64,000 nucleotides of DNA from a virus. The stretch is from UHGV virus genome UHGV-0049167, one strand, 5' to 3'. This document shows positions 2,265-56,200 of this stretch, piece by piece; within the stretch, counting starts at the first letter, position 1, and each line of letters begins with the position of its first letter. Under the pieces are notes generated by a model. It was not told the DNA's origin, did no database searches, and was given only the letters and a program-made list of their open reading frames with translations. The translations under genes were made by a program, and so were the position numbers.

Positions 2265-3368
2265 ATGAGACGGATAAACGTAAGGCCGCGCAACGGCTAC
2301 AAGCAAAAAATAGAGGAACTGGGCTTCTGTTTCCATGAGGGCTATTGGAAAGAGGAGGCTTGCTACGAGTTTGGCATGGCGGAGATTGAAGCCATCGAAA
2401 AGGCGACCAACGAATGCTATGCCATGTGCTGCGATGCCGTCCAGCACATGATAGACAGCGAAACGTTCCCAATGGACGGCATACCGCAAAGGCTGAAAGA
2501 CGCCATCGTGGCTTCGTGGGAGAAAGACGACCTGTCTCTATACGGAAGGTTCGATTTTGCTTTCGACGGCAATACGCCCAAGCTGCTGGAGTTCAACGCA
2601 GACACCCCAACATCGCTGCTTGAATGCTCCGTGATACAATGGGATTGGAAGCAAGAGGTGTTCCCCTCGTGCGACCAGTTCAACGGCATACATGAGGCTC
2701 TGGTGCAGAGCTTCCGCGACATACACGGGCGGTATGGCTTCGGAAAATACCACTTCGCCTGCTGCCGCGAAAACCTCGAAGACGAGGAGACCTTGCAATA
2801 CATATTGTCCGCCGCGATGGAGGCAGGGCTTGACGTGGCCGAAGTTTCAATGGAACAAATGCTCCTTGATGATGGCGTGTTCCGTACAGCAAACGGCGAC
2901 AGGGTGGAGTGCTGTTTCAAGTTATACCCATGGGAGTGGATGATGACCGAAAGCCCGGAGGGTTGCATGGCCGACACAGTGTGGATAGAGCCTCTTTGGA
3001 AGTCGCTAATGTCAAACAAACTCCTGCTAAGGGTACTTTACGACCTATATCCCGACTCGCCCTACATACTGAAATGTCAAAACGCCCCCAACGGATTGAA
3101 ATCTTACTGCAAAAAGCCGATATTCGGTCGTGAGGGAGCAAACGTGGTGCTTGTCAAGGATGGCTCTGTACTTGAACAGACTGGCGGTGAATATGGAAAC
3201 GATGGATATGTCTACCAGGAAATTGCCGACATACCATGCTTCGATGGCAAATATCCAATAATCGGCTCGTGGGTGATAGGCGGCGAGGCCGCCGGCATGG
3301 GCATCCGCGAATCGTCAACACGGATAACGGACAACATGAGCGAGTTCATTCCCCACATAATAAAGTAA
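2265..3368 (+). CDS. glutathionylspermidine synthase (GspS) family ATP-grasp-like amide ligase
   Basis: 367 aa; motif RFDFAFDGNTPKLLEFNADTPTS and overall length match my recollection of GspS/YgiC-type proteins. Confidence 0.75.
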   Translation: MRRINVRPRNGYKQKIEELGFCFHEGYWKEEACYEFGMAEIEAIEKATNECYAMCCDAVQHMIDSETFPMDGIPQRLKDAIVASWEKDDLSLYGRFDFAFDGNTPKLLEFNADTPTSLLECSVIQWDWKQEVFPSCDQFNGIHEALVQSFRDIHGRYGFGKYHFACCRENLEDEETLQYILSAAMEAGLDVAEVSMEQMLLDDGVFRTANGDRVECCFKLYPWEWMMTESPEGCMADTVWIEPLWKSLMSNKLLLRVLYDLYPDSPYILKCQNAPNGLKSYCKKPIFGREGANVVLVKDGSVLEQTGGEYGNDGYVYQEIADIPCFDGKYPIIGSWVIGGEAAGMGIRESSTRITDNMSEFIPHIIK

Positions 3369-17267: not shown

Positions 17268-18119
17268 ATGGAACGGGAAATAGGAGAGATATTCGAGTAC
17301 CGTGGCGAGTGGTATCAATGCATCGGGGCTCAAAAAAACGAAACAGGTAATTTGTGCAAACACTGTGATATGCGCTGTTCTCTTATAAGAAAATTCAAGG
17401 CATCTGAATGTCGTGCGGATTATCGTTCTGACTGTAGATACGTCATCTTCAAGAAGCTTGAGCATGTAGGCGACCCTTACCCGTTATACGACCACATCGT
17501 GCAGCGTTACGCAGGAGTGAAATTCCCCGTTGTCCTGACCGGAAAGCGGTTCATCAACTGCAACGCGTTCAACAACACCGTTGACATCGAAGTTGAACAA
17601 GACAAAACAAACAAAGAAGATATGGAAACAAACGAAAAGACAATTACAGTCCCTGAAGGCTGGGAGTTCGACCACCTGGACGAACGAGGCAACATCGTGC
17701 TGAAAGAGAAGAAGAAAGAGCTGCCCAAGACGTGGCTGAAATGCCTGTGTAGCATCAATGACGTGGAATTGATAGAAGAAGATAGCGAAGTTTATAAATG
17801 CCTTATAAGTGAATTGTCCGATGACGGGCGACTGTTTGGCGATAGCGACAGAAACATGTTGCCGCAAGGTCTCGGCAAGTCCATGCTCGCCCTCTGCCAG
17901 CTTCTCGTCTGCCGCAACGCCTGGTGGAAGCAATTGGGGTGGAAGCCTTATTGGACGGATGATAAAATGAAATATTGCATTAGTTACAAAGCAAATAAGA
18001 AAGAAAAGAACTCTTATTGGACGGTGAGCCGGATATTGGCTTTCCCCACCCCCGAAGTCCGCGACCAGTTCTTAGACACATTTGGTGACCTGATTGAAGA
18101 AGCAAAGGATCTGCTATGA
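17268..18119 (+). CDS. hypothetical protein
   Basis: 283-aa ORF. Confidence 0.45.
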   Translation: MEREIGEIFEYRGEWYQCIGAQKNETGNLCKHCDMRCSLIRKFKASECRADYRSDCRYVIFKKLEHVGDPYPLYDHIVQRYAGVKFPVVLTGKRFINCNAFNNTVDIEVEQDKTNKEDMETNEKTITVPEGWEFDHLDERGNIVLKEKKKELPKTWLKCLCSINDVELIEEDSEVYKCLISELSDDGRLFGDSDRNMLPQGLGKSMLALCQLLVCRNAWWKQLGWKPYWTDDKMKYCISYKANKKEKNSYWTVSRILAFPTPEVRDQFLDTFGDLIEEAKDLL

Positions 18120-18322
18120 GTGATTTATTTAGCAATGCTGACACCATTCAGCCGCAAGAATCAACCTTAGAAACGTGCCGCACTTGTATTCACCGCCAGC
18201 GGTGGGAGTGTGGTAGCAAGGTAATATCCTACTGCCGTGTGCGTAAGAGTAACCGCACTTTCAATGGATTACAGAAAGTGAAGTGCAACCAACAGGCGTG
18301 TAGCCAATATGTAAAGATATGA
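18116..18322 (+). CDS. small Cys-rich protein
   Basis: 68 aa; CRTCIHRQRWEC...C. Confidence 0.4.
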   Translation: MSDLFSNADTIQPQESTLETCRTCIHRQRWECGSKVISYCRVRKSNRTFNGLQKVKCNQQACSQYVKI

Positions 18323-19867: not shown

Positions 19868-20001
19868 CCGACTTTGAGCGTGAGGCGTACCACAATGAGA
19901 TTGACTTCCTGCAAGCCGAGGTCGACAGGTACCGCCAGCAGAACAAACAACTGATGGAATTTATATTCAAACTTAAAAACAGAAATAGAAATGGGATGTG
20001 A
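19864..20001 (+). CDS. small coiled-coil protein (45 aa, not in ORF track)
   Basis: ATGA overlap with previous small ORF; MTDFEREAYHNEIDFLQAEVDRYRQQNKQLMEF... Confidence 0.3.
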   Translation: MTDFEREAYHNEIDFLQAEVDRYRQQNKQLMEFIFKLKNRNRNGM

Positions 20002-20563
20002 CATACATTTACGCCTTGAAAAAAGACTCAAAAAAGAAAAGGTGTGGAACAGATACTACACAGAGAAATGCGAGTGGCAAAATTGCGGAATAATCCCTTT
20101 TGACAGAACTTGGGGTGACCGGATATATGGTATGTTCGCTGTTTTGGCAAACGTGCGCAATCGATGGAATATCGAGCATATTCCCATACGTGGATTGCCG
20201 GATGACATCTGCCCTGCCACCTTGGAATGTTATGGTAAACCAATAAAGGATGAAATCAAAGACGCTTATGAAGACGAGAACTTTTATCTTACTTCCAAAG
20301 CAGAAGATTGGGTGAAAGACGGATTGAGCAGATATTACGTAGTGAGAGGGCGCAAGTTCTGCTCTTGCCCAGATTTCCATAGCGCGAACTGGTGTACGAC
20401 GCGTGAAATGGAAGATTGCATAAACAAGGTGTTCAAAGACGAAAAAGGAAACTTCAAACCGGAGGCAGAGCCTTATGAATGGCTTGCCCTGCTCGGCGCG
20501 ATGAAAGGTTATGAAAGCACCGGCGAATATGAGTGCAGGGCTATTTTTTTGTTTGACAATTAA
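19991..20563 (+). CDS. hypothetical protein
   Basis: 190-aa ORF. Confidence 0.45.
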   Translation: MGCDIHLRLEKRLKKEKVWNRYYTEKCEWQNCGIIPFDRTWGDRIYGMFAVLANVRNRWNIEHIPIRGLPDDICPATLECYGKPIKDEIKDAYEDENFYLTSKAEDWVKDGLSRYYVVRGRKFCSCPDFHSANWCTTREMEDCINKVFKDEKGNFKPEAEPYEWLALLGAMKGYESTGEYECRAIFLFDN

Positions 20564-20576
20564 AAGATTACGTAAA

Positions 20577-20862
20577 ATGGAACAAGACAACGTTATCGCA
20601 AAGGAATGCTCGCACTGCCACCGCACGTTGCCCGTCACGGAGTTCTACAAGAAGAAAGGCACGTCCGACGGTCTGCAATACTACTGCAAGCAGTGTCAAA
20701 TTGAGTTTAACAACGCCTACAAATGCAAGAAGAAGGCTTTCGGGGGGGGGGAATCCCGAACTCTCACGCTTCACGCCACGTCAGCTTATGGAGGAACTTA
20801 AAGCCCGCGGCTATACTGGAGAACTGAAATATGTACAAACAATAAATCTTGAAAGATTATGA
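20577..20862 (+). CDS. zinc-ribbon protein interrupted by a G10 tract; full-length product needs a 1-nt frame change at 20742-20751
   Basis: Frame 0 gives CSHCHRTLPVTEFYKKKGTSDGLQYYCKQCQ...GGG then early stop at 20801; +1 frame continues NPELSRFTPRQLMEELKARGYTGELKYVQTINLERL and ends at 20862 in ATGA overlap with next gene. Confidence 0.45.
20742..20751. repeat. G10 homopolymer tract inside coding sequence
   Basis: cgggggggggga read directly. Confidence 0.9.
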
Positions 20863-21815
20863 CACAGACCGGCATAATCGTCCTTCCGCATCAAATCAAA
20901 ATGAAAGCGTGTGAAATACAACTCGACTACGACACCGTAATGTCAAAGGTAAGCCGCCCGCTTGCAAGGAAGCTGGTACACTCCGTGGAGCTTTTGCGGA
21001 AGTCGGAGAAAATGGCGTTGCGCCTCGACCCCGAAAACGGCTTTTACCTTGCGTTCAGCGGCGGCAAGGACAGCCAATGCCTCTACCATGTCGCAAAGCT
21101 GGCCGGTGTCCGCTTCAAGGCTCACATGAACCTTACGAGCATAGACCCGCCCGAAGTCATCCGCTTCGTCAAGACGCAATACCCCGATGTGGAGCTAATC
21201 AAACCACGGATGAGCATTTACGAAATGGCTAAGAAAAAGCACATCTTGCCTACAAGGATTTTGCGCTGGTGTTGCGCCGAGTTCAAGGAAACGTCAGGCG
21301 TTGGCAAAATAACACTTGTCGGTGTGAGAAAAGAAGAAAGCGCACGGCGAGCCAAACGTGAGGAAATATCCACAGAGATAAAGGGCAAGCGCACTGAGGA
21401 AACCTTTGACCAATGGAGCGAACATGAGGAGAGCATGGTTGCGTGTGTCGGCGGTAAGGACAAAATCCTTGTATCGCCCATAATCTATTGGACGGAGCGC
21501 GACGTGTGGGAGTTCCTTAACGTGAACGGCATACCACACTGCGAACTCTACGACGAGGGTTATACACGCATTGGCTGCATCTGTTGCCCTATGTCGCAAC
21601 CATGGCAAAAAGCCAAAGAGATTAAACGTTGGCCGCACGTCAAACGCAATTGGATAAAGACAATCCAATGGCTGATAGACAACGGATATATCGACCACAA
21701 TTTCAACGACGCTGAAACAGGCTTTAGGTGGTGGATAAGCGGCAAGGGCTACAAGCAGTTCTACGCCGACGAGTTCCTGCAACAGAAAATTGAATTTAAA
21801 GACAAAGACCAATGA
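20859..21815 (+). CDS. phosphoadenosine phosphosulfate (PAPS) reductase family protein (PP-loop ATP pyrophosphatase fold)
   Basis: PP-loop motif YLAFSGGKDSQCLYHV; 318 aa. Confidence 0.7.
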   Translation: MTQTGIIVLPHQIKMKACEIQLDYDTVMSKVSRPLARKLVHSVELLRKSEKMALRLDPENGFYLAFSGGKDSQCLYHVAKLAGVRFKAHMNLTSIDPPEVIRFVKTQYPDVELIKPRMSIYEMAKKKHILPTRILRWCCAEFKETSGVGKITLVGVRKEESARRAKREEISTEIKGKRTEETFDQWSEHEESMVACVGGKDKILVSPIIYWTERDVWEFLNVNGIPHCELYDEGYTRIGCICCPMSQPWQKAKEIKRWPHVKRNWIKTIQWLIDNGYIDHNFNDAETGFRWWISGKGYKQFYADEFLQQKIEFKDKDQ

Positions 21816-21976
21816 AAGCGAGACATTGCGGCGAGTGCCGCCACTTCAAGAACGAGGACATCAACGGCGACGGCTGGTGCGGGAAGTACGACGTGGGCAG
21901 AAGATGTGGCAATGAGTGTTTGGCAAAGGAAAACAAAGGAAATACAAGGAAAATTTCCTCTAAAATCACAAGATAA
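21812..21976 (+). CDS. small Cys-rich protein (54 aa)
   Basis: ATGA overlap; MKARHCGECRHFKNEDINGDGWCGKYDVGRRCGNEC... Confidence 0.35.
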   Translation: MKARHCGECRHFKNEDINGDGWCGKYDVGRRCGNECLAKENKGNTRKISSKITR

Positions 21977-23501: not shown

Positions 23502-24557
23502 ATGAATTTTGCCAAATTTTACGATATAAGTGATTGGGTAGAAAAGCCCTACATCAACACAAAAGGTACCAGGAACAAATGTATTGTCATAGACCCAGAT
23601 AGTGGTATTGAATATTATTTCAAAACCTCTATCCACAAAGGTGCTATGGACTACAAGACTGAGTTCTGGTCAGAAATCATAGCTTCCAAAGTTGGGCAAT
23701 ATCTGAATTTCAATGTGCTGGATTATAACATAGCCAAACATAAGGATGAAGTCGGTTGCCTCTCTATGTCTATGATAAAAGACGGTGAATGCCTTACGGA
23801 GGGTATAAGTCTACTGACAGGATTCGACAATACTTATCGACCGTCAGACAAAGATTCATATTCACAATACACTTTCCATTTCATTGAAGAGGCCATAAGC
23901 AGTTTCGGATTGTCAAAGAACATTGACGATGTTATCAGGACCATTATCTTTGACTCTATAATAGGGAATAGTGACAGGCATCAAGAAAACTGGGGGTTCA
24001 TCACGCCTTTTCAAGAAAAAACATTAACAAGGGAGGAGGCAAAAAGTTTTCTTGGAAGATTGAAAGAGCGCATCAAGAAGATACAGGATTCATCGCGTGG
24101 CAACAACGGAAACGTTCCTTTAGACGTCCACGTCAAGATACGGATTTTGCAAATTGTCGGTAAATACGCTCCGATATATGACAGTGGATGCTGTCTCGCA
24201 CGTGAAAAAAACGAAGGAGCCGTAAGGCAAATGCTTAATGACAAAATAATGTTCGACAGTTTTGTCAACCGTGGGCAGTCTGAAATACGTTGGGACGAAA
24301 GTGGGAGAAAGCTAAACCATTTCGAGTTGATAAAGCGCATAAAAGAAAAATATTACGAAGTCGTTACCGATACAATCAACCAAGTCATCGCCGTTTATGA
24401 TGAAAATAAGATACATGACATTGTATTTAACATAGACAAGCGCCTTCCTGACGTACTGAAAGCTGACGAACGTTGGGCTTTGTCTGATGACAGGAAAGAA
24501 TTGATATGTAGATTGATTGACGAACGTTTTAACAGACTAAAAAACATTATATTATGA
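23502..24557 (+). CDS. HipA-like (PI3/4-kinase fold) serine/threonine kinase domain protein
   Basis: Catalytic-loop-like DSIIGNSDRHQENWGF and APIYDSGCCLA; 351 aa, lacks long HipA N-terminal region; AT-rich upstream region. Confidence 0.6.
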   Translation: MNFAKFYDISDWVEKPYINTKGTRNKCIVIDPDSGIEYYFKTSIHKGAMDYKTEFWSEIIASKVGQYLNFNVLDYNIAKHKDEVGCLSMSMIKDGECLTEGISLLTGFDNTYRPSDKDSYSQYTFHFIEEAISSFGLSKNIDDVIRTIIFDSIIGNSDRHQENWGFITPFQEKTLTREEAKSFLGRLKERIKKIQDSSRGNNGNVPLDVHVKIRILQIVGKYAPIYDSGCCLAREKNEGAVRQMLNDKIMFDSFVNRGQSEIRWDESGRKLNHFELIKRIKEKYYEVVTDTINQVIAVYDENKIHDIVFNIDKRLPDVLKADERWALSDDRKELICRLIDERFNRLKNIIL

Positions 24558-25225
24558 AAAGATATATAAGACAAATCTACTTGGTATGGAGACGAGGTAG
24601 AAACGAAAGAAGAATAAAGGTCGGAAGAATTCTCCGTAATAGTACGGAGGGGGTACGGTTCATGTACATGTCAGAAGGAGTCAAGGAAGCAGTGGAAAAA
24701 GGATTCAATATGTATCCTGATTTTCCAGACCCAGGAAAAGTGTACCATAACAACGTGCTTGAAATATTTTCACAGAGGTTGAACAACACCGAACGTTCAG
24801 ATATACAAAAGTATTATGACTATTGGGAAATAAGCCCTGAGATGAAAGATGACAAATATTATGTGCTTGCCCAAACGCAAGGACTTCTGCCGACAGACAC
24901 ATTCGAGTTTCTTGCAGAATATTATCCGGTAAAGGATTTGCGTTTTACCAGCGAAATTTGTGGATTGACAAAAATGCAGCTTCCTAACGGAACTTTGAAA
25001 GAAGGTGATATGCTAAAATGGAAATTGGAGCCAAGTAATCCTTACGATAAATATGCCGTAAAGTTATATAAGGAGAATAAGGAATTAGGATATGTTAAAT
25101 TAATACACAGTAAGGTTTTCCATGATTCAAAATACAAAAAATTCGCTGTAAAGGTAAAAAGCGTAGAACAGAATGGACATATAAACAGGGTTTTTGTTTC
25201 CGTATCCACTATTAATGTCAGGTAA
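24554..25225 (+). CDS. HIRAN-domain protein
   Basis: C-terminal EPSNPYDKYAVKLYKENKELGYV resembles HIRAN signature; ATGA overlap with kinase gene. Confidence 0.55.
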   Translation: MKRYIRQIYLVWRRGRNERRIKVGRILRNSTEGVRFMYMSEGVKEAVEKGFNMYPDFPDPGKVYHNNVLEIFSQRLNNTERSDIQKYYDYWEISPEMKDDKYYVLAQTQGLLPTDTFEFLAEYYPVKDLRFTSEICGLTKMQLPNGTLKEGDMLKWKLEPSNPYDKYAVKLYKENKELGYVKLIHSKVFHDSKYKKFAVKVKSVEQNGHINRVFVSVSTINVR

Positions 25226-35572: not shown

Positions 35573-38500
35573 TCATAAATATATGTTTCCGTTCGTGTCC
35601 GTGTCATCATCGTCAATGCGATTAATCTGTATCATCTGCACCCTGTCATAATTCATGTATACGGCTGTTGTCGTTATCATGCTGCCGTAGTATACGGTGC
35701 CGCTTCCCGGTTGTACGATTCCGATGTTCGAGAATCTGTATACATTGCGCGAGCACCATTGTCTGGAGAAATCCACCTTTTCCGCATAGTCATCCTCATA
35801 TCGCGTATAGTCCATTGGCGGTGTGTCCATAGGCGAGCCTATCATGAACGATTCCGGATTGTCCTGCGCCCACATTCCTGTGACAGCCTGTGCCGTGGTC
35901 ACATTACCCTGCTCCATGAACCATCTGCCGTTCGCGGCTCTTGCAATCTCCGGAGTGGAGGCGTAGTCACCGCTGAGATATGTGTCGTTTACGCGCCCTG
36001 CAAGATACATGTACAAAGGTGTTTTCGTGTACACATGACCATATTGGAATATGGTGTTCATTATCTGTTTGTTGCCAACGATGTCGCCTACGGTGGAGAA
36101 TGTGGCCCCTGTCAGCTGCAGGCGTCCGTATTTGCTGCTGGTCTCCCACCGTTCTTCCGAGACATCCTTGCCGGACAGTCCCCACGGTCCGAGGTCATAA
36201 AGGAACGTACCGTCATTGTCATAATAGGACAGTACCATGTATGAGCCGTTATATCCCATTTTGATGTTGGTCACACCGTTAGGGTTCTTTACCTCAATCA
36301 GTCCTCCCTTTATCTCCACATGCCCCTGTCCTTCGTCCATCGTGCGGAGCATCACACCTGTAAGGGTGCCCGCCTCGTCGATTGTGGTGACTGTCTCGCC
36401 GGAGTTGTTCTGTATCTCGAAGTTGTCGGCAGTGACCTTTATGCGCTTGTGTTCAATGTCTATCCCTGTCGCCTGCAGCTCGTCGCGCGTGATTGTCTCC
36501 GAACGCCAGTCGGTCGCCTCGCTGCCTTTCTCCAGCTTCACTCCGCATATCCAGACCTCTCCCTGTGCAGAACTGTCCGGCATGAGCCGTGCCGCTATCA
36601 GGCTCTTCCCTCCGCTTACGTCATTGCGAGTGCTCCATGTCACCTGATAACGGTTCCATCCGCTTTCAAGCGTGAACTGCACGAATCCGTCTGTCACACC
36701 TGTCTGGTTCTTCGTCCCCGGACTTGTGACCCAGTCGGTGCAGTTCGGATAGAAGTACGAGCCGATGCTGCCTGTGCCGCGCGCCCAGAATGAGAGCGTA
36801 TACTGTACGCCCGGCTCGGGCACCACGTTGCGCCATGTGATGACGTCCTTGTATGATGTCCCGGCTTCGTTCACACCGTGTGCCACGCTTATTTTTTCTC
36901 CGTAAGGTGTCGTGTATGCTCCTGCCTCTACGGTATCCTGTACGGTGCATTGGCTGAAGTCCGATGTTCCTGGAAGAAGATTCGGTCTTTTAAGCCTGTC
37001 CTCCGCGCTGAGTCCCCAGTCTGTCGCGTCCGCACCTGTCTCTATCTTGGGACGCGACACGGACGAGTATCCTGATGATATGCCCTGTATATACAGGTTA
37101 CACTGCTCTACCGACGCCACAGCCTTGTCCTGTATCCTGTGTGTGGAGCTTATGCGTCCCTCGAACGTGTCCGTGGATGTTATCTGCCTCCATGTCCCGA
37201 GATACTGCGTACTGCCGTCGGCATACCGTATCATGGGCTCCATGCCGATACGTCTGTTGCCTGATGCTGCCGGAACCGCAGATACGGTCTTGACAAGACA
37301 TGATACGGTTATTGTCTTTCCGCGCAGGCTTGACACATCCCCGATTGTGTAGACCTTGTTCCCGTTCCCTGTCAGGAATATGTCAGGAGTGGTCACCATG
37401 TTTCCGTCCTTTGCCCCAAGATAGCCGACTTTAAGGCTTATGCTGTCCGTCTCAGCCTTAATCTGCGATGAGAGTGCCATGGACGATACAGTGAAGGACA
37501 GGCGGCAGCTCACACTGCGGGTCTCCCCGCCCAGCGTTGCCTGTGCCGTAATCTGTACCCATCCCGCTCCGTATGGCACCGAACCTCCCCAGTCTGCCGT
37601 ATATGTCCCTATTGCGGTTATTGTAACCTGTGCCCCGTTGCGTGACGCAAGACAGTGCATAGGCTCTATGGCGGTAATTGTGACAGTCATCTCGCGCGTG
37701 CCGAGCCATGCGCGCAGACGTGATGTCGCATCCTGCATGCTCACCACACCGTCACTGTCAGCCTCCAATGTTATGGCGGCAGGGTCAAGTGCCCATGAGA
37801 AGCCGTCCTGCCCGTCCGTGCCGGGTTCACCGTCACTTCCGTCCGCTCCGTCCTCACCGCGTATCCGTGTCCACTTATATGAGGTAACGCTTGTCGGGTC
37901 ATATGAGTTGAAGTCTACGCATTGCCCGAGCCACGCGCCCGGTGTCTCACCGTTGTTTGCTGTGAACGTCTTTCCCCCGTCGTCGGAATATTTGATGTGA
38001 AGGTAGCTTGTCTTTCCGTCCGTACCGTTGGTTCCCGGTATTCCCTGCTCCCCATCATACCCTTGGAAGCGTGACCACGTGTAGTCCGAAGGGTCGTCGC
38101 TGTCTGCCTCCGTGAAGTCAACGTATGTGCCGATGTAGAGGTTGGGAACTTCTGACATTGGAGTCCCGTTGGAGTTTGCCGAGTATTTAACATGGAAATA
38201 TGTCGTACGACCGTCCTCTCCTGCGGGTCCCGGAACGCCCTGCTCCCCCTTGTCTCCTTTTTCTCCGGTATCACCCTTTATCTTTGACCATTTATAATCG
38301 GACGGTGTTCCGCTGTCTGTAGGATTCGTGTCTGTAAGGACTCCAATCCAGTCACCGCTGTCCTCTCCGTTGTTTCCGGTAAAGGTGACGCCTCCGTCGT
38401 TAGAGTATTTGATATGGAGATAATATGTCGTGCCGTCAGTCCCATTCACGCCCGGCAAGCCCTGTTCTCCCTGTATGCCTTCAAATCTTGACCAAGTGTA

Positions 38501-41500
38501 GTCAGATGCATCAGTACTGTCTGTTTCTGTAAAATCGACGTAAGTACCTATGTATTTGTCAGGCGTCTCGGTCATGGGCGTACCGCTCGCGTTCGCAGAA
38601 TACTTTATGTGGAAGTAGCTTGTACGTCCGTCCGCACCGGGTGTTCCGGGTATGCCTTGCTCGCCTTGCGGTCCTTGTAATCCTTGAAGCCCCTGCTCGC
38701 CTCTATCACCTTTGTCTCCTTTGTCGCCCTTTATCTTCAACCAAGTGTATTCTGACGAGTCTGTGCTGTCGTCAGCGTTGGTGTCTGTCATGACGCCAAT
38801 CCACGCGCCCGGTGTCTCACCGTTGTTTGCTGTGAACGTCTTTCCCCCATCATCGGAGTATTTGATGTGAAGATAATATGTAAGCCCGTCCACACCGTTG
38901 GTTCCCGGTATTCCCTGCTCCCCATCATACCCTTGGAAGCGTGACCACGTGTAGTCCGAAGGGTCGTCGCTGTCTGCCTCCGTGAAGTCAACGTATGTGC
39001 CGATGTAGAGGTTGGGTGTCTCGGTCATGGGATTTCCGTTCTCGTTTGAAGAATATTTCACATGGAAGTATGTGGTCTTTCCGTCATGACCGGGTGCCCC
39101 GTCTTTACCGGCTACACCGGGAATACCCTGCTCTCCTTGCGGACCCTGCGGTCCCTGTATGTTTCCGGCATTCACCCACTTGTCACCGTCCCACACCCAT
39201 AAGTCTCCGTCTATGAGCCATGCGTCACCGACCGCGTTGCCGTCCTGCGGGAGTTCGGAAGAGTCATTCTTCGAACCTTTCAGATTGAATGAAGTCCCGT
39301 CCTCTCCACGGAATTTGCTCCATGTATAGTCGGAAGGATTGTCGCTTTCCTGTGCGCTCTCTTTGTTTACGGCTATGCCTATATATTTTGTCGTGTCTGA
39401 AGGGGTCTGATACATAGGCTCACCGTCCGGACTGTCAGAGTAGGCAATCCATGTATAGAGAGTCTCACCGTCCTCGCCCTTTGCTCCCGGCACTCCGTCC
39501 TCGCCTTTTATCTCTGACCAGGTATAGTCCGATGGATTGTCGCTTTCCTGTGCGGTATTCTTGTTATATGCGAATCCAATGTATTTCTTTCCGGAAGGGT
39601 CGTTGGATATGCCTCCTCCTTCAGCGGTGTCGGAATATCTTATCCATGTGTAAAGTGTCTTCCCGTCCTCACCGGACGGTCCTGGTACACCCTGTGGTCC
39701 CATGTCACCTTTCTCACCCTGCTGTCCGTCCATACCTCTGAAACGTGCCCATGTATAATCAGAGGGGACATCGCTCGCTGTAGGGTTAAAATCCACGCGT
39801 GTACCGATAAATACATCCGGAGTCTCACTCATGGGCACACCGTCAGGATTCGGTGAATATCTTATGTGAAAATATGTGGTTTTCCCGTCTGCTCCGTCTT
39901 CTCCAGCCGGACCCTGTATTTTTCCTGCGTTTGCCCATGCGCTGCCGTCCCATACCCACAGATAGCCGTTCACGAGATACGCGTCTCCTGTGCTGTTCCC
40001 TGTTGGCGGCAGCATGCTCTCGTCATCAACGCTTCCCTTCACAGTGAATGACGTGCCGTCCTTTCCGTCAGTACCTTTAATCCTTGACCATGCATAGTCG
40101 CTGTAGACGAGAGCCACGTCGCTCTCCGTGCGGTCTGTGCATATGCCGAGCATGAGCCAGTCTTTTGCCGTGCTCTGGGATTTGTCCTTTGTCCAGTCGT
40201 CCGGACCGTTTCCCCATGCAAGGTGCGTGTAGCTGACAAGACCGGAAGTGTCCACATCCAGCTCGCCTCTTATCTTATTGCCGTTAGCCGCGAACCATGT
40301 CGTGCGGTACTGGCTTAGAGAAAAACTTGTGATTCCGTTGTATTGCGCGAATGACGGACTCTCCAGCTCGGTATCCGGAGTGGAGTGGGCGGCTATTATT
40401 ATCGCATGGCTGCGCGCTGTGTCGTCACCACGGTGTCCGCACAGACAAACGCTGTCACCCTCTGCAGGCTCAAGGCTGTCAGCCGCGCACGTGGCTTCAG
40501 ACACTTCAATCCAATGGCACTTTCTGTCCTCACCGTCAATGTTCCGTGTTCCGCTCCCTGTTGCCGTGACAAGTCTCCACCATAGTCTGTTTCCTGCATC
40601 ATATGATGTCCCCTCGGCAAGATTGGATGTCATTGCCAGAGCCTGGTCTCCGACCTTCCACATGTTCTGCACGGCTCTGCCGTCGCTGTCCTCCGCCAGC
40701 CACCACAGACGCCATGCTCCGCTTATTCTTTCGACAGAGCGTACCGTGCAGTTAGCAGCGGACAGTATCAGTTGACCTCCGACGCTGTTCAGCTCATCTA
40801 TGACAAGCTCGAAGAAATGTGCCCTTCCTGTCACGGTCAGCGTTTTCATTGTGGCTTCGTCGGCAAGAAGTTTCTTCAGCCGTGCGGTACCGTCCGCATC
40901 TATGCCGTAGTCTCCGTCTCCCACAAGCAGCCCTTTGAGGAATGTTATAATATCCAAGGCTGTGTCCGGACTGTCTTTCCGCAGAAAATACTTCGCGCAT
41001 TGTGCTAAAATGTCACCACGCATGCCATAAGTCAGGGATGTAAGTATCTCTGTTTTTATGGAATCGAGCTGTGCTCTGAATGAGGATTGAGACACGGTCA
41101 GGGTGTCTGTTAAATCCACACTTATTTCATAAAGTATGCTATCATCGGCTTTACAAGTATAGTTGCTGACATACAGAAGATGCTCTTCTTGATTATATCT
41201 TACTGTCAGACGTGTATTTTCATTCAGCAATGAGGTGAAGTCCTCATTTAATGCCAGATATACACGGGAAAATTTTATTGAATATGTGAATTTCTCATCA
41301 TTATTCCCTTTCATGTAAGCAATAAGAGCCGCATCCAGTCTTTTTTCCGCTTCCCGTATGTAGGATTCAGGAAGAGAAATGCCAGTTATGACAAATGTAT
41401 CGCCTATTGACGGACGATATCCTTGTGCCGCGTTCGGCATAATGACACCAAAGGTATCTGTTTCTTTTTTTACGGCTATCCATACTTCATATTCGCTGGT

Positions 41501-43735
41501 GTCCTGCTGGCGTGAAACGTAACTGTTTGTATCACGTGAAGGCAGGATATAGTCTCCTTCATATTTGTCCGCATTAGAACTGTTGACCTTGCGAAGATTG
41601 CCTTGTGCGTCTGTCATGACAGGGTTATAGAATTTGTATCTGTCACCATCGGCATACTTGTCCACCCCGATAACGAAACGGCATGCGGCGCAGTTGCCGC
41701 TTGTCATCTCTATTGCAGCCTCTTCGCTTTCTAATGCATGCTCAAAAATATTGAAGCCTCCACTTCCGTTATATACATGTAGTTTTATATAGAAATATGA
41801 ATGAAGGTATTCGTCACTATTGTCTTTAAGGACATCGCTATCATCCGTATCAAACCGTATGTCAGCTATTTCACCTATCAACTGACCTTGAATGTTTTTT
41901 ATCCCTTTTATTGTCGGGACTATATCTTCAAATGAAGTCGTCCCTTCGTGAGGGTTCAATTCATTGTATACATTATTAAATATATATTTATTTCCTGATT
42001 CATCTTCATCTTCATATGTATTATTGACTGCATTATAGTAGCGTTCCGCTCCTCCACTTTCTCTGTATATAGAGGGCATCAGGCTCTGAGAGGGAGTTAT
42101 CCACTCTCTTCCTGTAATATTAATTATGGCTGGTGTGTGGTCACCGCTGTCCTCCACAACATTCCATTCACCGCCTGAGAAATCCAAATGCGAAGGCGCA
42201 TACGGAACATTGTTTACATCAGACAGCGTTATTCCGCTTTTACTGTATGCGATGTTATTCCCATCTCCATATGAGAAATAATACAGTTCTCCGCCACTTT
42301 TCTGATATGTTATGGATGATTTTGCATTTAACGTCATTCCTATAGTCGCCTGGCTGTTGGTCGCTCCGCTTCCTGAGAAAATGGCGTAAGCAGTCCCTTT
42401 AATCACAACTTGAAACCATCCGCTGGCATGGAAGGTATATTCATAGTCCTTCCAACCTGACAATATTTCTATTTTATCACTTATAGAATCATCCTCATTC
42501 GGATTATAGTCGTCTCTCCATATTCCAATACTTATTGTATTTTTAAGGTTTCTGTCCCCTCCGTAGCTATTTGACGATACTTTCTGCCATGAAAGTGATA
42601 AATCTGCGTCACCGCTGATTTTTCTGAAAGTCAAAAAGGATTCATTGAAAACAAACCGAAGTTTGTCTCCCTCTTGTGCATTTATTTTCAGTCTGAAAGA
42701 TATCGTGATATAGGTGTTGCCTATACCTGTTCCAAAATAGAATATGTCTGTAGCCTCCCTGTTGCTTATTACTGTGGGGCTATATGCATTATAAAAAGGA
42801 GCAGTCTGTCCGATGTCTGCGCTGGCATCCGTGTTTGACACCTTTTTAAGTCTATATGCGGTATATGGGGAACTGTTGTATTTTAGTATCTCATTTAAGG
42901 AGATATCTGCTACTTCAGATTTGTCAATGTTCTCTGTGTCGAAACTCGCGTTGCCCTCCGCACTCATGTTTGGATAGTACCATGGCAAATTTTTTGTGCC
43001 TCCAGTACCGGTTATCCTCGTGATAATCCTGTAATTGGCATTTGTTTTCTGAATAGACAACAGAGCATTGTCATTACCATATTCTATCGGAGTTGTTATT
43101 ACATTCTCTGTATATCCTACGTGGCAGGTCTTCCCTGTCCAATAATAGGCGAGTCCATATACATTATATATATCCTGTAGAGCCTCTGCAATGAACTTGT
43201 CTTCTATACTGACATCTTTGCCCTCAGAAGTTATGCCTTCGTCAATGACAATATGGAAACCTTCTTGTTTGTCTTTATTATATAGACCGCTGTAAATCAA
43301 TGAATCGTTGAGCCGGGCAACAAACTCGTGTACATCACCGAAGAAATGTACTTTAGATGTGTTGCTTCTGTATCGGTCTTTATATTGGGCTTCAGTATCT
43401 TCTGTTACCACATCAAGGAAATACACGTTTTCAAGTATCTCCCTTTCACTTACAAATGTGACCTCATGTTTGTATGTTATCTCAGAATTGTCTTTGGATG
43501 ATGACGGCTTTTGCCTTATATAATACTTCTCTCCGCCAAATTCTATATACTCGTTTAATGTCCATTCATTGTCAAGACATCTTGGGAATTTCAATGTAGC
43601 CGTGAAGGTCGGTGCGCCGCCCATGCGTTGTGCGTCATAGGTGTATGTACCTATGACCGCTTTTTCTGTAGACGAAGGAAAATATTCTTTCACTCCGTTT
43701 GTGTCACGCATTATGTATAAGCTCTTCTTCTCCAT
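35573..43735 (-). CDS. giant 2720-aa structural protein with collagen-like Gly-X-Y tracts and tandem ~85-140-aa modules; putative tail fibre / host-recognition protein
   Basis: Uninterrupted 8163-nt ORF; GPQGVPGPSGEDG, GDKGDKGDRGEQGLQGLQGPQGEQGIPG; repeated YTWSRFQGYDGEQGIPG...YYLHIKYSDDGGKTFT modules. Confidence 0.8.
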   Translation of the reverse strand: MEKKSLYIMRDTNGVKEYFPSSTEKAVIGTYTYDAQRMGGAPTFTATLKFPRCLDNEWTLNEYIEFGGEKYYIRQKPSSSKDNSEITYKHEVTFVSEREILENVYFLDVVTEDTEAQYKDRYRSNTSKVHFFGDVHEFVARLNDSLIYSGLYNKDKQEGFHIVIDEGITSEGKDVSIEDKFIAEALQDIYNVYGLAYYWTGKTCHVGYTENVITTPIEYGNDNALLSIQKTNANYRIITRITGTGGTKNLPWYYPNMSAEGNASFDTENIDKSEVADISLNEILKYNSSPYTAYRLKKVSNTDASADIGQTAPFYNAYSPTVISNREATDIFYFGTGIGNTYITISFRLKINAQEGDKLRFVFNESFLTFRKISGDADLSLSWQKVSSNSYGGDRNLKNTISIGIWRDDYNPNEDDSISDKIEILSGWKDYEYTFHASGWFQVVIKGTAYAIFSGSGATNSQATIGMTLNAKSSITYQKSGGELYYFSYGDGNNIAYSKSGITLSDVNNVPYAPSHLDFSGGEWNVVEDSGDHTPAIINITGREWITPSQSLMPSIYRESGGAERYYNAVNNTYEDEDESGNKYIFNNVYNELNPHEGTTSFEDIVPTIKGIKNIQGQLIGEIADIRFDTDDSDVLKDNSDEYLHSYFYIKLHVYNGSGGFNIFEHALESEEAAIEMTSGNCAACRFVIGVDKYADGDRYKFYNPVMTDAQGNLRKVNSSNADKYEGDYILPSRDTNSYVSRQQDTSEYEVWIAVKKETDTFGVIMPNAAQGYRPSIGDTFVITGISLPESYIREAEKRLDAALIAYMKGNNDEKFTYSIKFSRVYLALNEDFTSLLNENTRLTVRYNQEEHLLYVSNYTCKADDSILYEISVDLTDTLTVSQSSFRAQLDSIKTEILTSLTYGMRGDILAQCAKYFLRKDSPDTALDIITFLKGLLVGDGDYGIDADGTARLKKLLADEATMKTLTVTGRAHFFELVIDELNSVGGQLILSAANCTVRSVERISGAWRLWWLAEDSDGRAVQNMWKVGDQALAMTSNLAEGTSYDAGNRLWWRLVTATGSGTRNIDGEDRKCHWIEVSEATCAADSLEPAEGDSVCLCGHRGDDTARSHAIIIAAHSTPDTELESPSFAQYNGITSFSLSQYRTTWFAANGNKIRGELDVDTSGLVSYTHLAWGNGPDDWTKDKSQSTAKDWLMLGICTDRTESDVALVYSDYAWSRIKGTDGKDGTSFTVKGSVDDESMLPPTGNSTGDAYLVNGYLWVWDGSAWANAGKIQGPAGEDGADGKTTYFHIRYSPNPDGVPMSETPDVFIGTRVDFNPTASDVPSDYTWARFRGMDGQQGEKGDMGPQGVPGPSGEDGKTLYTWIRYSDTAEGGGISNDPSGKKYIGFAYNKNTAQESDNPSDYTWSEIKGEDGVPGAKGEDGETLYTWIAYSDSPDGEPMYQTPSDTTKYIGIAVNKESAQESDNPSDYTWSKFRGEDGTSFNLKGSKNDSSELPQDGNAVGDAWLIDGDLWVWDGDKWVNAGNIQGPQGPQGEQGIPGVAGKDGAPGHDGKTTYFHVKYSSNENGNPMTETPNLYIGTYVDFTEADSDDPSDYTWSRFQGYDGEQGIPGTNGVDGLTYYLHIKYSDDGGKTFTANNGETPGAWIGVMTDTNADDSTDSSEYTWLKIKGDKGDKGDRGEQGLQGLQGPQGEQGIPGTPGADGRTSYFHIKYSANASGTPMTETPDKYIGTYVDFTETDSTDASDYTWSRFEGIQGEQGLPGVNGTDGTTYYLHIKYSNDGGVTFTGNNGEDSGDWIGVLTDTNPTDSGTPSDYKWSKIKGDTGEKGDKGEQGVPGPAGEDGRTTYFHVKYSANSNGTPMSEVPNLYIGTYVDFTEADSDDPSDYTWSRFQGYDGEQGIPGTNGTDGKTSYLHIKYSDDGGKTFTANNGETPGAWLGQCVDFNSYDPTSVTSYKWTRIRGEDGADGSDGEPGTDGQDGFSWALDPAAITLEADSDGVVSMQDATSRLRAWLGTREMTVTITAIEPMHCLASRNGAQVTITAIGTYTADWGGSVPYGAGWVQITAQATLGGETRSVSCRLSFTVSSMALSSQIKAETDSISLKVGYLGAKDGNMVTTPDIFLTGNGNKVYTIGDVSSLRGKTITVSCLVKTVSAVPAASGNRRIGMEPMIRYADGSTQYLGTWRQITSTDTFEGRISSTHRIQDKAVASVEQCNLYIQGISSGYSSVSRPKIETGADATDWGLSAEDRLKRPNLLPGTSDFSQCTVQDTVEAGAYTTPYGEKISVAHGVNEAGTSYKDVITWRNVVPEPGVQYTLSFWARGTGSIGSYFYPNCTDWVTSPGTKNQTGVTDGFVQFTLESGWNRYQVTWSTRNDVSGGKSLIAARLMPDSSAQGEVWICGVKLEKGSEATDWRSETITRDELQATGIDIEHKRIKVTADNFEIQNNSGETVTTIDEAGTLTGVMLRTMDEGQGHVEIKGGLIEVKNPNGVTNIKMGYNGSYMVLSYYDNDGTFLYDLGPWGLSGKDVSEERWETSSKYGRLQLTGATFSTVGDIVGNKQIMNTIFQYGHVYTKTPLYMYLAGRVNDTYLSGDYASTPEIARAANGRWFMEQGNVTTAQAVTGMWAQDNPESFMIGSPMDTPPMDYTRYEDDYAEKVDFSRQWCSRNVYRFSNIGIVQPGSGTVYYGSMITTTAVYMNYDRVQMIQINRIDDDDTDTNGNIYL
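37931..38146. repeat. ~216-bp direct repeat, copy 1 (inside giant gene)
   Basis: Near-identical to 38801-39016; last ~125 bp identical by eye. Confidence 0.85.
38801..39016. repeat. ~216-bp direct repeat, copy 2 (870 bp downstream of copy 1)
   Basis: Near-identical to 37931-38146. Confidence 0.85.
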
Positions 43736-53266: not shown

Positions 53267-56200
53267 ATGAGCGGAGAAATTGGAAGCGCACTTGTAATAC
53301 CTGAAAGCGTACTTGACTCATTTAAAGATGCTGATGAATGGTTGGCAAAATTACAAAAGAGGATTTATGATACCGGTGATATTTCCGGAAGGTCTTTTGG
53401 TAAAATGGTAAATGGGACAACCCGTTTTTCCTCGGTGCTTGACGCTGTCATACAAAAGCTGAAGGAAGTGGAGAAATCGTCGGTAAACGCCTCTACGGCA
53501 TTTAATGCCATGAGCGGGGCAAAATTCGGGAATGCGGCAACGCAGGCGGAGAAGCTGAACACAAGTATAGTGAGAGCAGCGGAAAACATAGAGAGGCTCA
53601 CATCTGCTACAAGAGACAGACAAGGCGATTCCGGACTGAAGAACATCAGTGTTACATTAGATGCTCTATGGAAAAAATTAAAAGATACCCGCGTAGAGCT
53701 GGAGCTGTATTGGAAGTATATATCTACAGGTAAAAAGGACAATGTCGAATTTGGGCAAAAGGGACTTAATGAAGCATCCAAGACTGCTGATGCGCTTATG
53801 CGACAAATCACTGCTCTTGACGCTGCCTATAAACAGCTACGGAGGAGTTCAGCCAACGTAAATGACATGAAAGGGCAGACGCTCGCGGACATGCGACAGT
53901 CTGACATTTTGAGGAAAATGTCAGAATATTACCGTGATATGGAACGGTCGTCTGCTGCTGCGGCAAAAGAAGCCGAGAAGAGAGCCAGGTCGGAGGAAAA
54001 AGCGGCAAAAGCCCAATCTAAAATATACCAGCAACAGAACTATGCCCGTAATACCACATATGCGGGAGCGTTAAGCTTTGCTGAGGACGCAAATACGATA
54101 AACCGACGTACCCAAGCCATTAAATACTTGCAGGAGGCTCGCGCAGCACTGTCTGCCACAGACAGTGAGTATGCATCCAAGCTTCGTACCCTTAATGACC
54201 GTATCAAGCAGTTGAATGCCGCAAATAACGAGGCTATAGCGGGAAGCAAAAACCTTGTGAACGAGCATCGTCGTCTGTTCGATATAACCGGGCAGCTGTC
54301 ACGGTCGTTTGCGCTCCTGTTTTCAGTGTCGCAGATACGTGGATATATTGCAAATGTCGCTACGGTACGTGGGGAGTTCGAGATGTCACAACGCTCACTT
54401 GAAGCGATACTGCAAAACAAGACACAGGCTGACGAAATTTTTGCCAAGACGGTTGAACTTGCCGTTAAATCGCCTTTTCGCATAAAGGACTTGGTTCAGT
54501 ATACACGGCAGCTTGCCGCCTACCGTATAGAATCAGACAAACTGTTTGATACCACCAAACGCCTTGCTGATGTCTCTGCAGGTCTTGGCGTGGATATGCA
54601 GAGACTTATTCTTGCTTACGGACAGGTAAAGGCTGCCGCATATCTGCGCGGTTCGGAAGTACGCCAGTTCACGGAGGCAGGTGTGAATATGTACGGGGAA
54701 CTGCAACGTTATTTTCAGGAGGTCAAAGGTGAGGCATATACCACAGCGCAAATTGTTGACATGATAAGCAAGCGCATGGTGACGTTCCAAGACGTGGAAG
54801 CTGTCTTTGAGAGAATGACAAGTGACGGAGGCATCTTCTTCAACATGCAGGAGATACAGGCTGAAACCTTGCAGGGCAAGATAAGCAATTTCCAGGACTC
54901 TCTTGATGTCATGTTAAATTCCATAGGCAAGGCAAACGAAGGTCTCTTGAAGGGTGCGATAGATGGAGCGACGGCATTGCTTGAACATTGGGAGGAACTT
55001 GTGGACGTCGGCAAGGCACTTGCAGCCATACTTCTTACAATCAAAGCACGTTCAATGTTCCTGAACTCGACGTTGGGAATCGCTTTTACACAAGCAGACA
55101 CAAAAGGTCTCGCGCGTTACAAAGCCTTGTTTGTCAACGCTTTCACCAGCATGGGAAATGCTGTAAAATCTTTTGGGACAATCGCAAAAACATCTCTTGT
55201 CGGACTCGGAATTTTTGCTGCCATCGAATTGATAACAACCGCAATAGGTAAATGGAGCGATTATAATAAAAAAGTCAAGGAGGCGCAGGAAGATACCATA
55301 AAGACAAGAGAAGAAATAAGGAAAATATCAAGTGCTTATAATGACCTCGCGGATACGGCAACAACCGCTGACACAAAGGATTTGCAGAAAAACATTGACA
55401 AACGTAGGATTGCCCTGCAAAGGCTCATTGACAGCGCGGCGAAAGACGGTCTGGTATTAAAGATAAACGTGGAGGAGGTAAAAGATGAGGATTTAAACAA
55501 GACGTTTGACAGTGTAGAGAAGAAATATAAGGATTTCGTTGATGAACTGGAGATAATCAGGCGGAACTATGCCGAGAGTAACAGAAAATTGGTCTTTGAT
55601 GGAATTGACGATGACCGTGAAGATTACAAAAACGCTGTTCTTGACTTTCTTTCACAATCGTCCAAAATAGAAACAGCCGTTGCTATAGTGAATGCCAATT
55701 ATGACAAGGCAACGGCAGCCACAAAGAAATATTTTGACGAGATAAGGGCAGGGCAGAAAGCCGGCGAATCGAACCTTGATTATATGCGGCGAATGGCAGC
55801 AGCCTTGCAGCAAATGAATGTGCATTTAGGAGGAAATATTTATGCAACTCCAGGATGGCTGGACGGAGTGGAGGGGATGGTAGACATTGTGGACACCTAC
55901 AATTCTGTAGAGAAAGCCGGGGCTGCGTTGGAGAAAGAGTACGAGAAAGTGTTCGGGGACTTGCGTGATAAATACAAAAACGACCCGATTAAGATAAAAG
56001 CCGCTATTGATAAGGTCGCAGCTGAAGAGGATTGGAGCCAATATGACCGGGAGTTGGCTTACAGACATTTTGGAATCAATGTCAAGATAAACAAGGACAC
56101 TATGGAGCAGGAGGTATCGTGGGTTGATGACTACCTCTCGAATTTCTTTGCCAAGAAAAAGTACGGAGTCAGCCTTGTTGTAAAGGAAGTCACGGATGGA

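Follow-up and report, generated by a model that had tools for sequence, protein, structure and literature searches.

The PP-loop gene and its product

The gene considered here lies on the plus strand of the virus genome UHGV-0049167, of which a stretch of 64,000 nucleotides was analysed (the window), and it encodes a protein of the 3′-phosphoadenosine-5′-phosphosulfate (PAPS) reductase family with an ATP-binding PP-loop. An uninterrupted open reading frame (ORF) of 318 codons extends over 20859..21815 and matches the Pfam family PF01507 (PAPS_reduct) with 77.1 bits against a cutoff of 22.5 (E=2.2e-21, residues 64-244). This match and the presence of an SGGKDS motif confirm the assignment to the PP-loop enzymes proposed in the original prediction, which had been made from the letters alone. 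The best PHROG match is PHROG 424 (1.8e-38). The similarity is far beyond chance, since a word-indexed protein collection contains 5,443 relatives at E<=1e-5; an exhaustive search returned 3,545 cluster representatives at E<=1e-3, with 456 of them below 1e-30. The ORF is a genuine protein-coding gene and an ordinary member of a widespread, named, functionally uncharacterised phage family that is common in gut phages. At the DNA level, a megablast search among deposited phages revealed no close relatives. Homologs with 27-29% identity are encoded by the cultured Bacteroides phages BF8P1, BF10P1-3, and BK649P1.

While the reading frame proposed earlier stands, its start at 20859 does not. The closest 120 of the 5,443 homologs are mostly 299-310 amino acids long and cover 91-97% of the query. 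The alignment with viral locus L003, which is 90% identical, begins only at 'ATGAAAGCGTGTGAA', i.e., at ATG 20901 (Met15 of the long ORF), and loci L001-L008 likewise support this position. The homolog lengths and the L003 alignment thus indicate that the conserved start is most likely the ATG at 20901 rather than 20859, giving an enzyme of 304 amino acids (20901..21815, plus strand), whose residues are numbered below from Met15. Only in this window does the open frame reach back to 20859. The 14 codons in question (20859..20900, plus strand) begin with an ATG overlapping the upstream stop codon (ATGA) and lie inside a window-specific insertion; this possible N-terminal extension probably does not belong to the translated enzyme.

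Conservation was assessed in an alignment of 45 full-length representatives sharing 30-51% identity. The SGGKDS motif (21057..21074, plus strand; residues 53-58), which corresponds to the loop binding the alpha/beta-phosphates of ATP in ATP pyrophosphatases, is present in its exact form in 43 of the 45 sequences, with S53, G55, K56, D57, and S58 being invariant. The other invariant residues are P117, C124, C125, K129, E130, G141, R143, E146, S147, and R150 in the central part of the protein and Y217, R223, G225, C226, C229, and P230 further downstream. Invariant cysteines are thus four in number and follow the pattern CC...CxxC. The Cys-Cys dyad C124, C125 (21270..21275, plus strand) is embedded in the motif R-[WFY]-C-C-x-x-[FL]-K-E, while C226 and C229 (21576..21587, plus strand) form a C-x-x-C within R-x-G-C-x-x-C-P. 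In a pairwise alignment, the dyad pairs with CC139/140 of the adenosine 5′-phosphosulfate (APS) reductase from Pseudomonas aeruginosa (2GOY), and in a profile search of PDB sequences, R-x-G-C-x-x-C-P aligns with SIGC(E/A)PC of the APS reductases 2GOY and 7LHR. In APS reductases, the CC and CxxC residues are the ligands of a [4Fe-4S] cluster. Judging from these alignments, a [4Fe-4S] cluster is most likely held on the corresponding residues of the phage protein, C124/C125 and C226/C229. In 38 of the 45 sequences, the 16 residues preceding P193 include a fifth cysteine; in the window protein this semi-conserved residue is C182 (21444..21446, plus strand), situated directly after a low-confidence loop and before the strand 188-191. 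Downstream of C229 the alignment has no conserved cysteine column, and 24 of the 45 sequences, including the window protein, have no cysteine there at all.

A confident AlphaFold2 model of the protein (mean predicted local distance difference test score, pLDDT, of 89.4; predicted template modelling score of 0.86; disorder confined to loop residues 166-182, below pLDDT 50) shows an alpha/beta fold superposable on solved members of the PAPS-reductase superfamily, with a Foldseek template modelling score of ~0.47 at best, so that the search found no close solved relative. The nearest structures in BFVD are uncultured gut siphovirus proteins named 'PAPS reductase' only by homology. In comparison with 2GOY and 7LHR, the window protein has an extra helical C-terminal region of ~70 amino acids carrying a conserved F-x-W-W-x-S motif.

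The same set of motifs is found in a remote homolog, a Vibrio phage protein of 386 amino acids (hhalign probability 99%) with LSGGKDS, CC, an aligned loop cysteine, and GCxxC as in the window protein, and because of this shared pattern, the LSGGKDS + CC + loop-Cys + GCxxC signature characterises a broad phage superfamily. Members of 358-457 amino acids (P0121-P0126; loci L023, L031-L034, and L036) bear insertions inside the PP-loop domain, which is consequently matched in two or three stretches; no Pfam family matches the inserted parts, which could be inserted domains or inteins. Nine of the ten long family members scanned have only PF01507, and one bears an N-terminal helix-turn-helix (HTH) fusion.

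Genomic neighbourhood

The window belongs to a siphovirus-type temperate phage: genes for a portal, a terminase, a tape measure protein, and an amidase, as well as an ImmA/HTH pair, are found elsewhere in it, and its closest relatives point to Bacteroidales hosts. Upstream of the PP-loop gene, on the same strand, are genes for RecT, an exonuclease/FtsK-like protein, DnaD/DnaC-like loaders, and an HNH endonuclease. Since these replication and recombination genes are co-directional with it, the earlier description of the surroundings as an early region is a fair one. The PP-loop gene occupies the distal end of the replication and recombination module both in the window and in its relatives. Scans of 81 ORFs across the whole window detected no ParB-like (ParBc) domain, in agreement with the remark in the original prediction that no ParB-like partner was visible; no DNA methylase, cysteine desulfurase, or DndD/SspC/BrxC-type ATPase was found among these ORFs either, nor were sulfate-assimilation genes. 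The window has no tRNA genes or Rfam RNAs.

For a wider view, 184 related loci were gathered from cellular genomes and from contigs of viral or metagenomic origin. The great majority of the cellular carriers are anaerobes (Bacteroidota, Clostridia, Lentisphaerota, Desulfovibrio, and some archaea), which would fit an oxygen-labile cluster. In the viral set, each neighbour family is limited to at most 5 of 57 non-redundant groups, and no neighbour is conserved over the 89 non-redundant loci. In a Pfam census of 150 immediate same-strand neighbours from 89 groups, of which the listing comprises the first 25 among 63 matched families and may thus miss rare ones, the top family is the C-5 DNA methylase (7/150), followed by helicases, radical S-adenosylmethionine (SAM) proteins (3/150), and terminases; among the families listed, none of the sulfate-assimilation, ParB, desulfurase, or nucleoside triphosphatase (NTPase) families is recurrent. 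Pfam confirmed C5 and N6/N4 methylases, radical-SAM proteins, ASCH, and DUF4406 as recurring neighbours, with ASCH and DUF4406 recurring within four genes of the PP-loop gene in viral loci. DNA methylases are located within 6 kb in 24 of the 89 loci (27%), and in several loci a methylase gene and the PP-loop gene overlap by 4 nt. In the phage NatCom_17901, the order is methyltransferase-PAPS-methyltransferase-terminase, with a 4-nt overlap between the PP-loop gene and the upstream methylase. As a tight partner the DNA methylase was nevertheless rejected, because its immediate adjacency is not enriched over the 89 loci when gene position is controlled for (4/169 vs 23/1000, p=0.56). The gene thus resides in the DNA-metabolism/modification part of phage genomes, at the boundary with late genes, and has no obligate partner, given that no neighbour is conserved and methylases are not enriched next to it. 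The most distant cellular relatives (L172, L176, L178, L180, and L182-L184; 24-31% identity) adjoin genes of ~1,400 amino acids; this context differs from that of the phage family and is probably defence-system-like, and these loci were left out of the census.

The gene immediately upstream in the window encodes a zinc ribbon (20577-20862). It is split into the frames 20511..20801 and 20701..20862, broken by a run of ten G residues (G10) at 20742-20751, whereas a version with nine (G9) reads through to give a product of 94 amino acids. Phages of Bacteroides, Phocaeicola, and Parabacteroides have intact genes with which residues 9-91 of the G9 product align without a break at 55-59% identity, and the PHROG matches of the zinc-ribbon gene include Lar-like restriction alleviation, endonuclease VII, and HNH families. 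Since four of the best Bacteroides-phage matches (three LoVEphage records and BS162P1) also align in two pieces, the frame break may be a recurrent one, caused by phase variation, by programmed shifting, or by an artefact of sequencing the homopolymer. The gene was therefore aptly called frameshift-prone, but its supposed coupling to the enzyme turned out to be incidental, because the gene is part of an insertion specific to this window: ~900 bp (~19990-20897) with a phrog_10141 gene followed by the zinc-ribbon gene have no counterpart in L003, and in L003 the gene 'MTDFEREAY...' directly abuts the PP-loop gene. In none of 24 other loci examined (0/24) is this zinc-ribbon gene found upstream of the PP-loop gene, and it was ruled out as a partner. 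The insertion sits precisely between two conserved genes and looks like a small mobile cassette.

Downstream, the stop codon of the enzyme overlaps (ATGA) the start of a small ORF of 54 amino acids with five cysteines (21812..21976, plus strand). The earlier observation of a small Cys-rich ORF at this position was correct; a conserved partnership with the enzyme is not established, and the ORF should be regarded as a lineage-specific neighbour. Orthologs retaining all five cysteines are found only in L001 and L003, the two closest relatives, and a hidden Markov model (HMM) built from the three orthologs found nothing else among 185 sequences. The Pfam match to HIPIP is below threshold (18.6 bits vs a cutoff of 22). 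Adjacency of small CxxC-type ORFs appeared enriched in a first test (22 observed vs 4.3 expected), but the enrichment becomes marginal under a same-strand gene-position control (odds ratio 1.8, p=0.028; p=0.052 per small gene). Cys-rich mini-ORFs are simply frequent in these early regions, and another one is present in the window at 18116..18322 (plus strand). Several non-homologous small C-x-x-C...C modules are dispersed over these early regions; they include this ORF, 5814-5990 in L008, and, in L002 (9370-9828), a Cys-rich C-terminal tail carried as a fusion by a DUF4406 (nucleoside deoxyribosyltransferase-like) protein.

Other features of the window may be mentioned briefly. About 1.7 kb downstream of the PP-loop gene, within the early region, a HipA-like kinase gene (23502-24557, plus strand) and a HIRAN-domain gene (24554-25225, plus strand) overlap by 4 nt; their PADLOC matches are PDC-M03A (8e-60) and PDC-M03B (1.5e-30), which form a candidate defence pair, making them a candidate anti-phage system. 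Near the left end, a glutathionylspermidine synthase-like gene (2265-3368, plus strand; PHROG 6215, 1.4e-110; Pfam GSP_synth, 6.5e-131) adjoins a low-GC (34%) segment, 1-2000, a possible boundary. The structural regions include giant ORFs at 35573-43735 (minus strand) and 53267-59014 (plus strand), of 2,720 and 1,915 amino acids, and the late genes have Pfam matches to collagen-repeat, BNR, and tape-measure families.

Possible function of the enzyme

The reading tentatively favoured here is that the gene encodes a stand-alone ATP pyrophosphatase of the PP-loop type, having an Fe-S site like that of APS reductases, which would act in accessory modification of nucleic acids or in counter-restriction, most probably by inserting sulfur. 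Several lines of evidence speak for it. The PP-loop is canonical and invariant across homologs with only 30-51% identity. Relatives that transfer adenylyl groups keep close variants of it: in PDB alignments, human FAD synthase has FNGGKDC and CysD has SIGKDS. The four invariant cysteines align with the Fe-S ligands of APS reductases, and the loop cysteine recurs in most members. The gene is located at the far end of the replication and recombination module, and C-5 methylase, radical-SAM, ASCH, and DUF4406 genes recur among its neighbours; the gene order in NatCom_17901 and the single HTH fusion are in line with this. Moreover, there is an anti-Dnd precedent in a vibriophage (see below), PAPS reductases have been noted in putative anti-defence operons regulated by Aca in a 2026 survey (PMC13551039), and defence based on phosphorothioate (PT) modification is common in gut Bacteroidota, with ~7.7% of gut isolates carrying PT genes and BREX type 4 being enriched in the gut (PMC12914056). 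Taken from sequence and context, a DNA-modification or anti-restriction role is plausible.

According to this proposal, the SGGKDS loop would bind ATP, and the enzyme would adenylate an oxygen of its substrate with release of pyrophosphate. The adjacent cluster, possibly with Cys182 from the mobile loop, would then deliver or activate the incoming group, most probably sulfur derived from a host persulfide or from cluster chemistry. The likeliest substrate would be nucleic acid, with phage DNA ahead of RNA. Such an enzyme, expressed together with the replication and recombination module, might fulfil an accessory role in DNA modification or anti-restriction and would need no phage-encoded partner.

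A number of points weigh against this proposal. None of the four established PT systems does without a PAPS-domain protein and a dedicated NTPase, and Dnd, Ssp, and BREX type 4 need both to synthesise PT (PMC12914056). In the window, an NTPase, a desulfurase, and a DNA-recognition subunit are absent, and none of them is recurrently adjacent among the neighbour families listed. Similarity to the DndC HMM is negligible (16 bits), and the match to BrxP covers only the shared domain. The co-location with methylases is regional rather than adjacent, as the position-controlled test indicates. The anti-Dnd precedent is a distant fusion protein, which was transferred along with a second gene and is compared here by description. 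Finally, the four cysteines could form a zinc site rather than hold an Fe-S cluster. The missing NTPase and recognition partners are the main weakness, and because of them, a thio-base or other modification, the use of host machinery, and an RNA or small-molecule target stay open.

A bolder version of the proposal holds that the solo phage protein installs a sulfur mark on phage DNA (phosphorothioate or thio-base), or another ATP-dependent modification, by means of host sulfur and thereby protects gut Bacteroidales phages from PT-sensing or restriction-type defences; in this specific form it should be considered unlikely. If it were true, it would amount to a minimal, fifth route to DNA sulfur modification, and thousands of viral 'cysH metabolic genes' would have to be re-labelled as anti-defence enzymes.

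The same lack of an NTPase partner can be read differently, namely as a sign that the protein interferes with PT-based defence of the host (Dnd, Ssp, or BREX type 4), being a decoy or plugging into the host NTPase or desulfurase while phage DNA itself stays unmodified. The best PADLOC match, BrxP (60.9 bits, positions 134-352 of 779), would agree with this, as would the frequency of BREX type 4 and other PT systems in gut Bacteroidota (PMC12914056) and the anti-Dnd phenotype of a phage PAPS-domain protein (10.1101/2021.05.05.442762). However, the catalytic-looking motifs are strictly conserved across hosts of many phyla, which argues for an autonomous enzyme rather than for a system-specific decoy, and interference of this kind is a doubtful explanation.

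The substrate might also be RNA, in which case thiolation of tRNA or rRNA, or another ATP-dependent base change, would tune translation during infection. The best NCBIfam similarity is to hypothetical proteins of the archaeal PRK13795 type (76 bits), a homolog from an archaeal virus is annotated as a PUA-PAPS-reductase-like fusion, PUA being an RNA-binding domain, ASCH-domain genes are located directly upstream in one lineage, and the fold is akin to that of TtuA, NcsA, and TilS. On the other hand, the archaeal HMM scores are far below the cutoffs, no PUA, THUMP, or other RNA-binding domain was found in the window protein or in the family members scanned, tRNA genes and Rfam RNAs are absent from the window, and the recurrent neighbours are DNA enzymes, all of which makes an RNA target quite unlikely.

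It is improbable as well that the protein is an adenylyltransferase or ATP-sulfurylase-like enzyme whose target is a small molecule (a nucleotide or cofactor); such an activity might alter a metabolite of the host or a nucleotide used in immune signalling. The known enzymes of the FAD synthase/CysD type, with which the window protein shares only 21-22% identity, are without the CC...CxxC cysteines found invariant in the phage family; there is no CysN-like GTPase partner in the window, and the genomic context is that of DNA metabolism.

Relation to known PP-loop systems

The Pfam family name points to the APS/PAPS reductases of assimilatory sulfate reduction, but assignment of the enzyme to this class is disfavoured. 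Against the NCBIfam CysH/APS/PAPS models, it scores 47.3 bits vs a cutoff of 165.1 (TIGR00434), 44 vs 154 (NF002537), 40 vs 235.3 (TIGR02055), and 40.1 vs 254.2 (TIGR02057), and these HMMs align only with residues 156-258 (or 173-258) in the C-terminal half; an outcome that would have spoken against the original prediction, classification as an assimilatory sulfate-reduction enzyme, was therefore not observed. Identity to 2GOY (P. aeruginosa) and 7LHR (Mycobacterium tuberculosis) is only 18-20%. The CC...CxxC [4Fe-4S] ligand pattern of the APS-reductase subgroup is present, as predicted ligands. Known sulfonucleotide reductases have a C-terminal catalytic cysteine in an ECG[LI]H motif, which forms a thiosulfonate intermediate, and the PP-loop of E. 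coli CysH is degenerate. The window protein lacks such a cysteine and keeps the canonical SGGKDS, and its gene, unlike those of assimilatory APS reductases, is found in a phage DNA-metabolism module. The least probable of all the readings is accordingly that of a viral 'cysH' auxiliary metabolic gene making sulfite for host sulfur assimilation during infection: the Pfam family name, the CC...CxxC hallmark, the presence of APS/PAPS reductases among the best structural matches, and the custom of many virome papers to annotate such genes in this way, without validation, are outweighed by the low and partial HMM scores, the absence of a conserved cysteine after the CxxC, the intact loop, the DNA-metabolism setting, and the absence of sulfate-assimilation genes in the window and among the families listed for the 150 immediate neighbours.

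This has consequences for the interpretation of viromes, in which the family is among the most often reported "auxiliary metabolic genes" and is taken to indicate virus-driven sulfate assimilation. Because of the canonical loop, the predicted cluster cysteines without a catalytic C-terminal one, and the context of DNA enzymes, it is more likely that at least this large gut-phage clade cannot act as a sulfonucleotide reductase and represents a nucleic-acid-directed enzyme, and in practical terms, counts of viral cysH should leave the clade out. If a solo DNA-modifying or anti-PT activity proved true, virome-based inferences about the sulfur cycle would need correction, and a compact enzyme would join the counter-defence repertoire of phages in gut Bacteroidota.

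The PAPS domain of FAD synthase (8ROM/8RON) and CysD (1ZUN) are without the four invariant cysteines and use small-molecule substrates, and CysD requires the CysN GTPase. Among the [4Fe-4S] PP-loop thiolases TtuA, NcsA, and TtcA, membership of the TilS/TtcA type, with flanking zinc fingers and a three-Cys cluster, does not apply to the window protein. The PHROG 424/IbrA-like (DUF3440) type belongs to the same annotation class and is often linked to ParB-like proteins. The window protein matches only positions 141-363 of the 460 in the PHROG 424 profile and has no DUF3440 Pfam match, no ParB-like domain occurs in the ten long family members or among the listed neighbour families, and the IbrA-like proteins of Flavobacterium phages are only 24% identical (E=0.03); the ParB-linked DUF3440 IbrA type was thus set aside. 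A literature search on IbrA/IbrB returned only unrelated papers.

In the DNA phosphorothioation systems, DndC is described as an ATP pyrophosphatase of the PP-loop type that has a 3-Cys [4Fe-4S] centre together with a Cys dyad accepting sulfur (PMC10853773), and DndC, SspD, BrxP, and the window protein are alike in being PP-loop enzymes with conserved cysteines; those of the window protein (CC dyad, CxxC, and loop Cys) are set beside the DndC cysteines by description only. Classification by HMM, which the original prediction had suggested for deciding between DndC-like and other subfamilies, showed that the protein is not DndC-like: TIGR03183 (DndC) gives 16.3 bits vs a cutoff of 290.4, and PADLOC at E<=0.01 gives no match to DndC or SspD, so that identity with DndC was rejected. 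The DUF4007 and ferredoxin-like extensions of BrxP are absent, and the partners of the Dnd, Ssp, and BREX systems (the NTPase DndD/SspC/BrxC, a desulfurase, and DndE/SspB) are found neither in the window nor as recurrent members of the listed neighbour families.

The proposed link between phage PAPS proteins and DNA modification holds in part: it has one experimental precedent and one bioinformatic echo, the Aca survey mentioned above (PMC13551039), while support from the neighbourhood is regional only and no NTPase accompanies the gene. The precedent is a vibriophage gene in which an N-terminal PAPS-reductase domain is fused to a Dam methylase; when this gene and its neighbour were moved into a sister phage, the latter became able to infect a DndFGH host (Piel et al., 10.1101/2021.05.05.442762). 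No Vibrio phage matched the window protein at E<=1e-5, and the protein in question, p0018 of Vibrio phage 44E38.1 (a PAPS-Dam fusion of 479 amino acids, with the anti-Dnd phenotype mapped to the two transferred genes), is likened to it by description. Nevertheless, p0018 is the only phage member of the family with an experimental phenotype, and it is associated with a DNA methylase, just as methylases also adjoin members of the family to which the window protein belongs.

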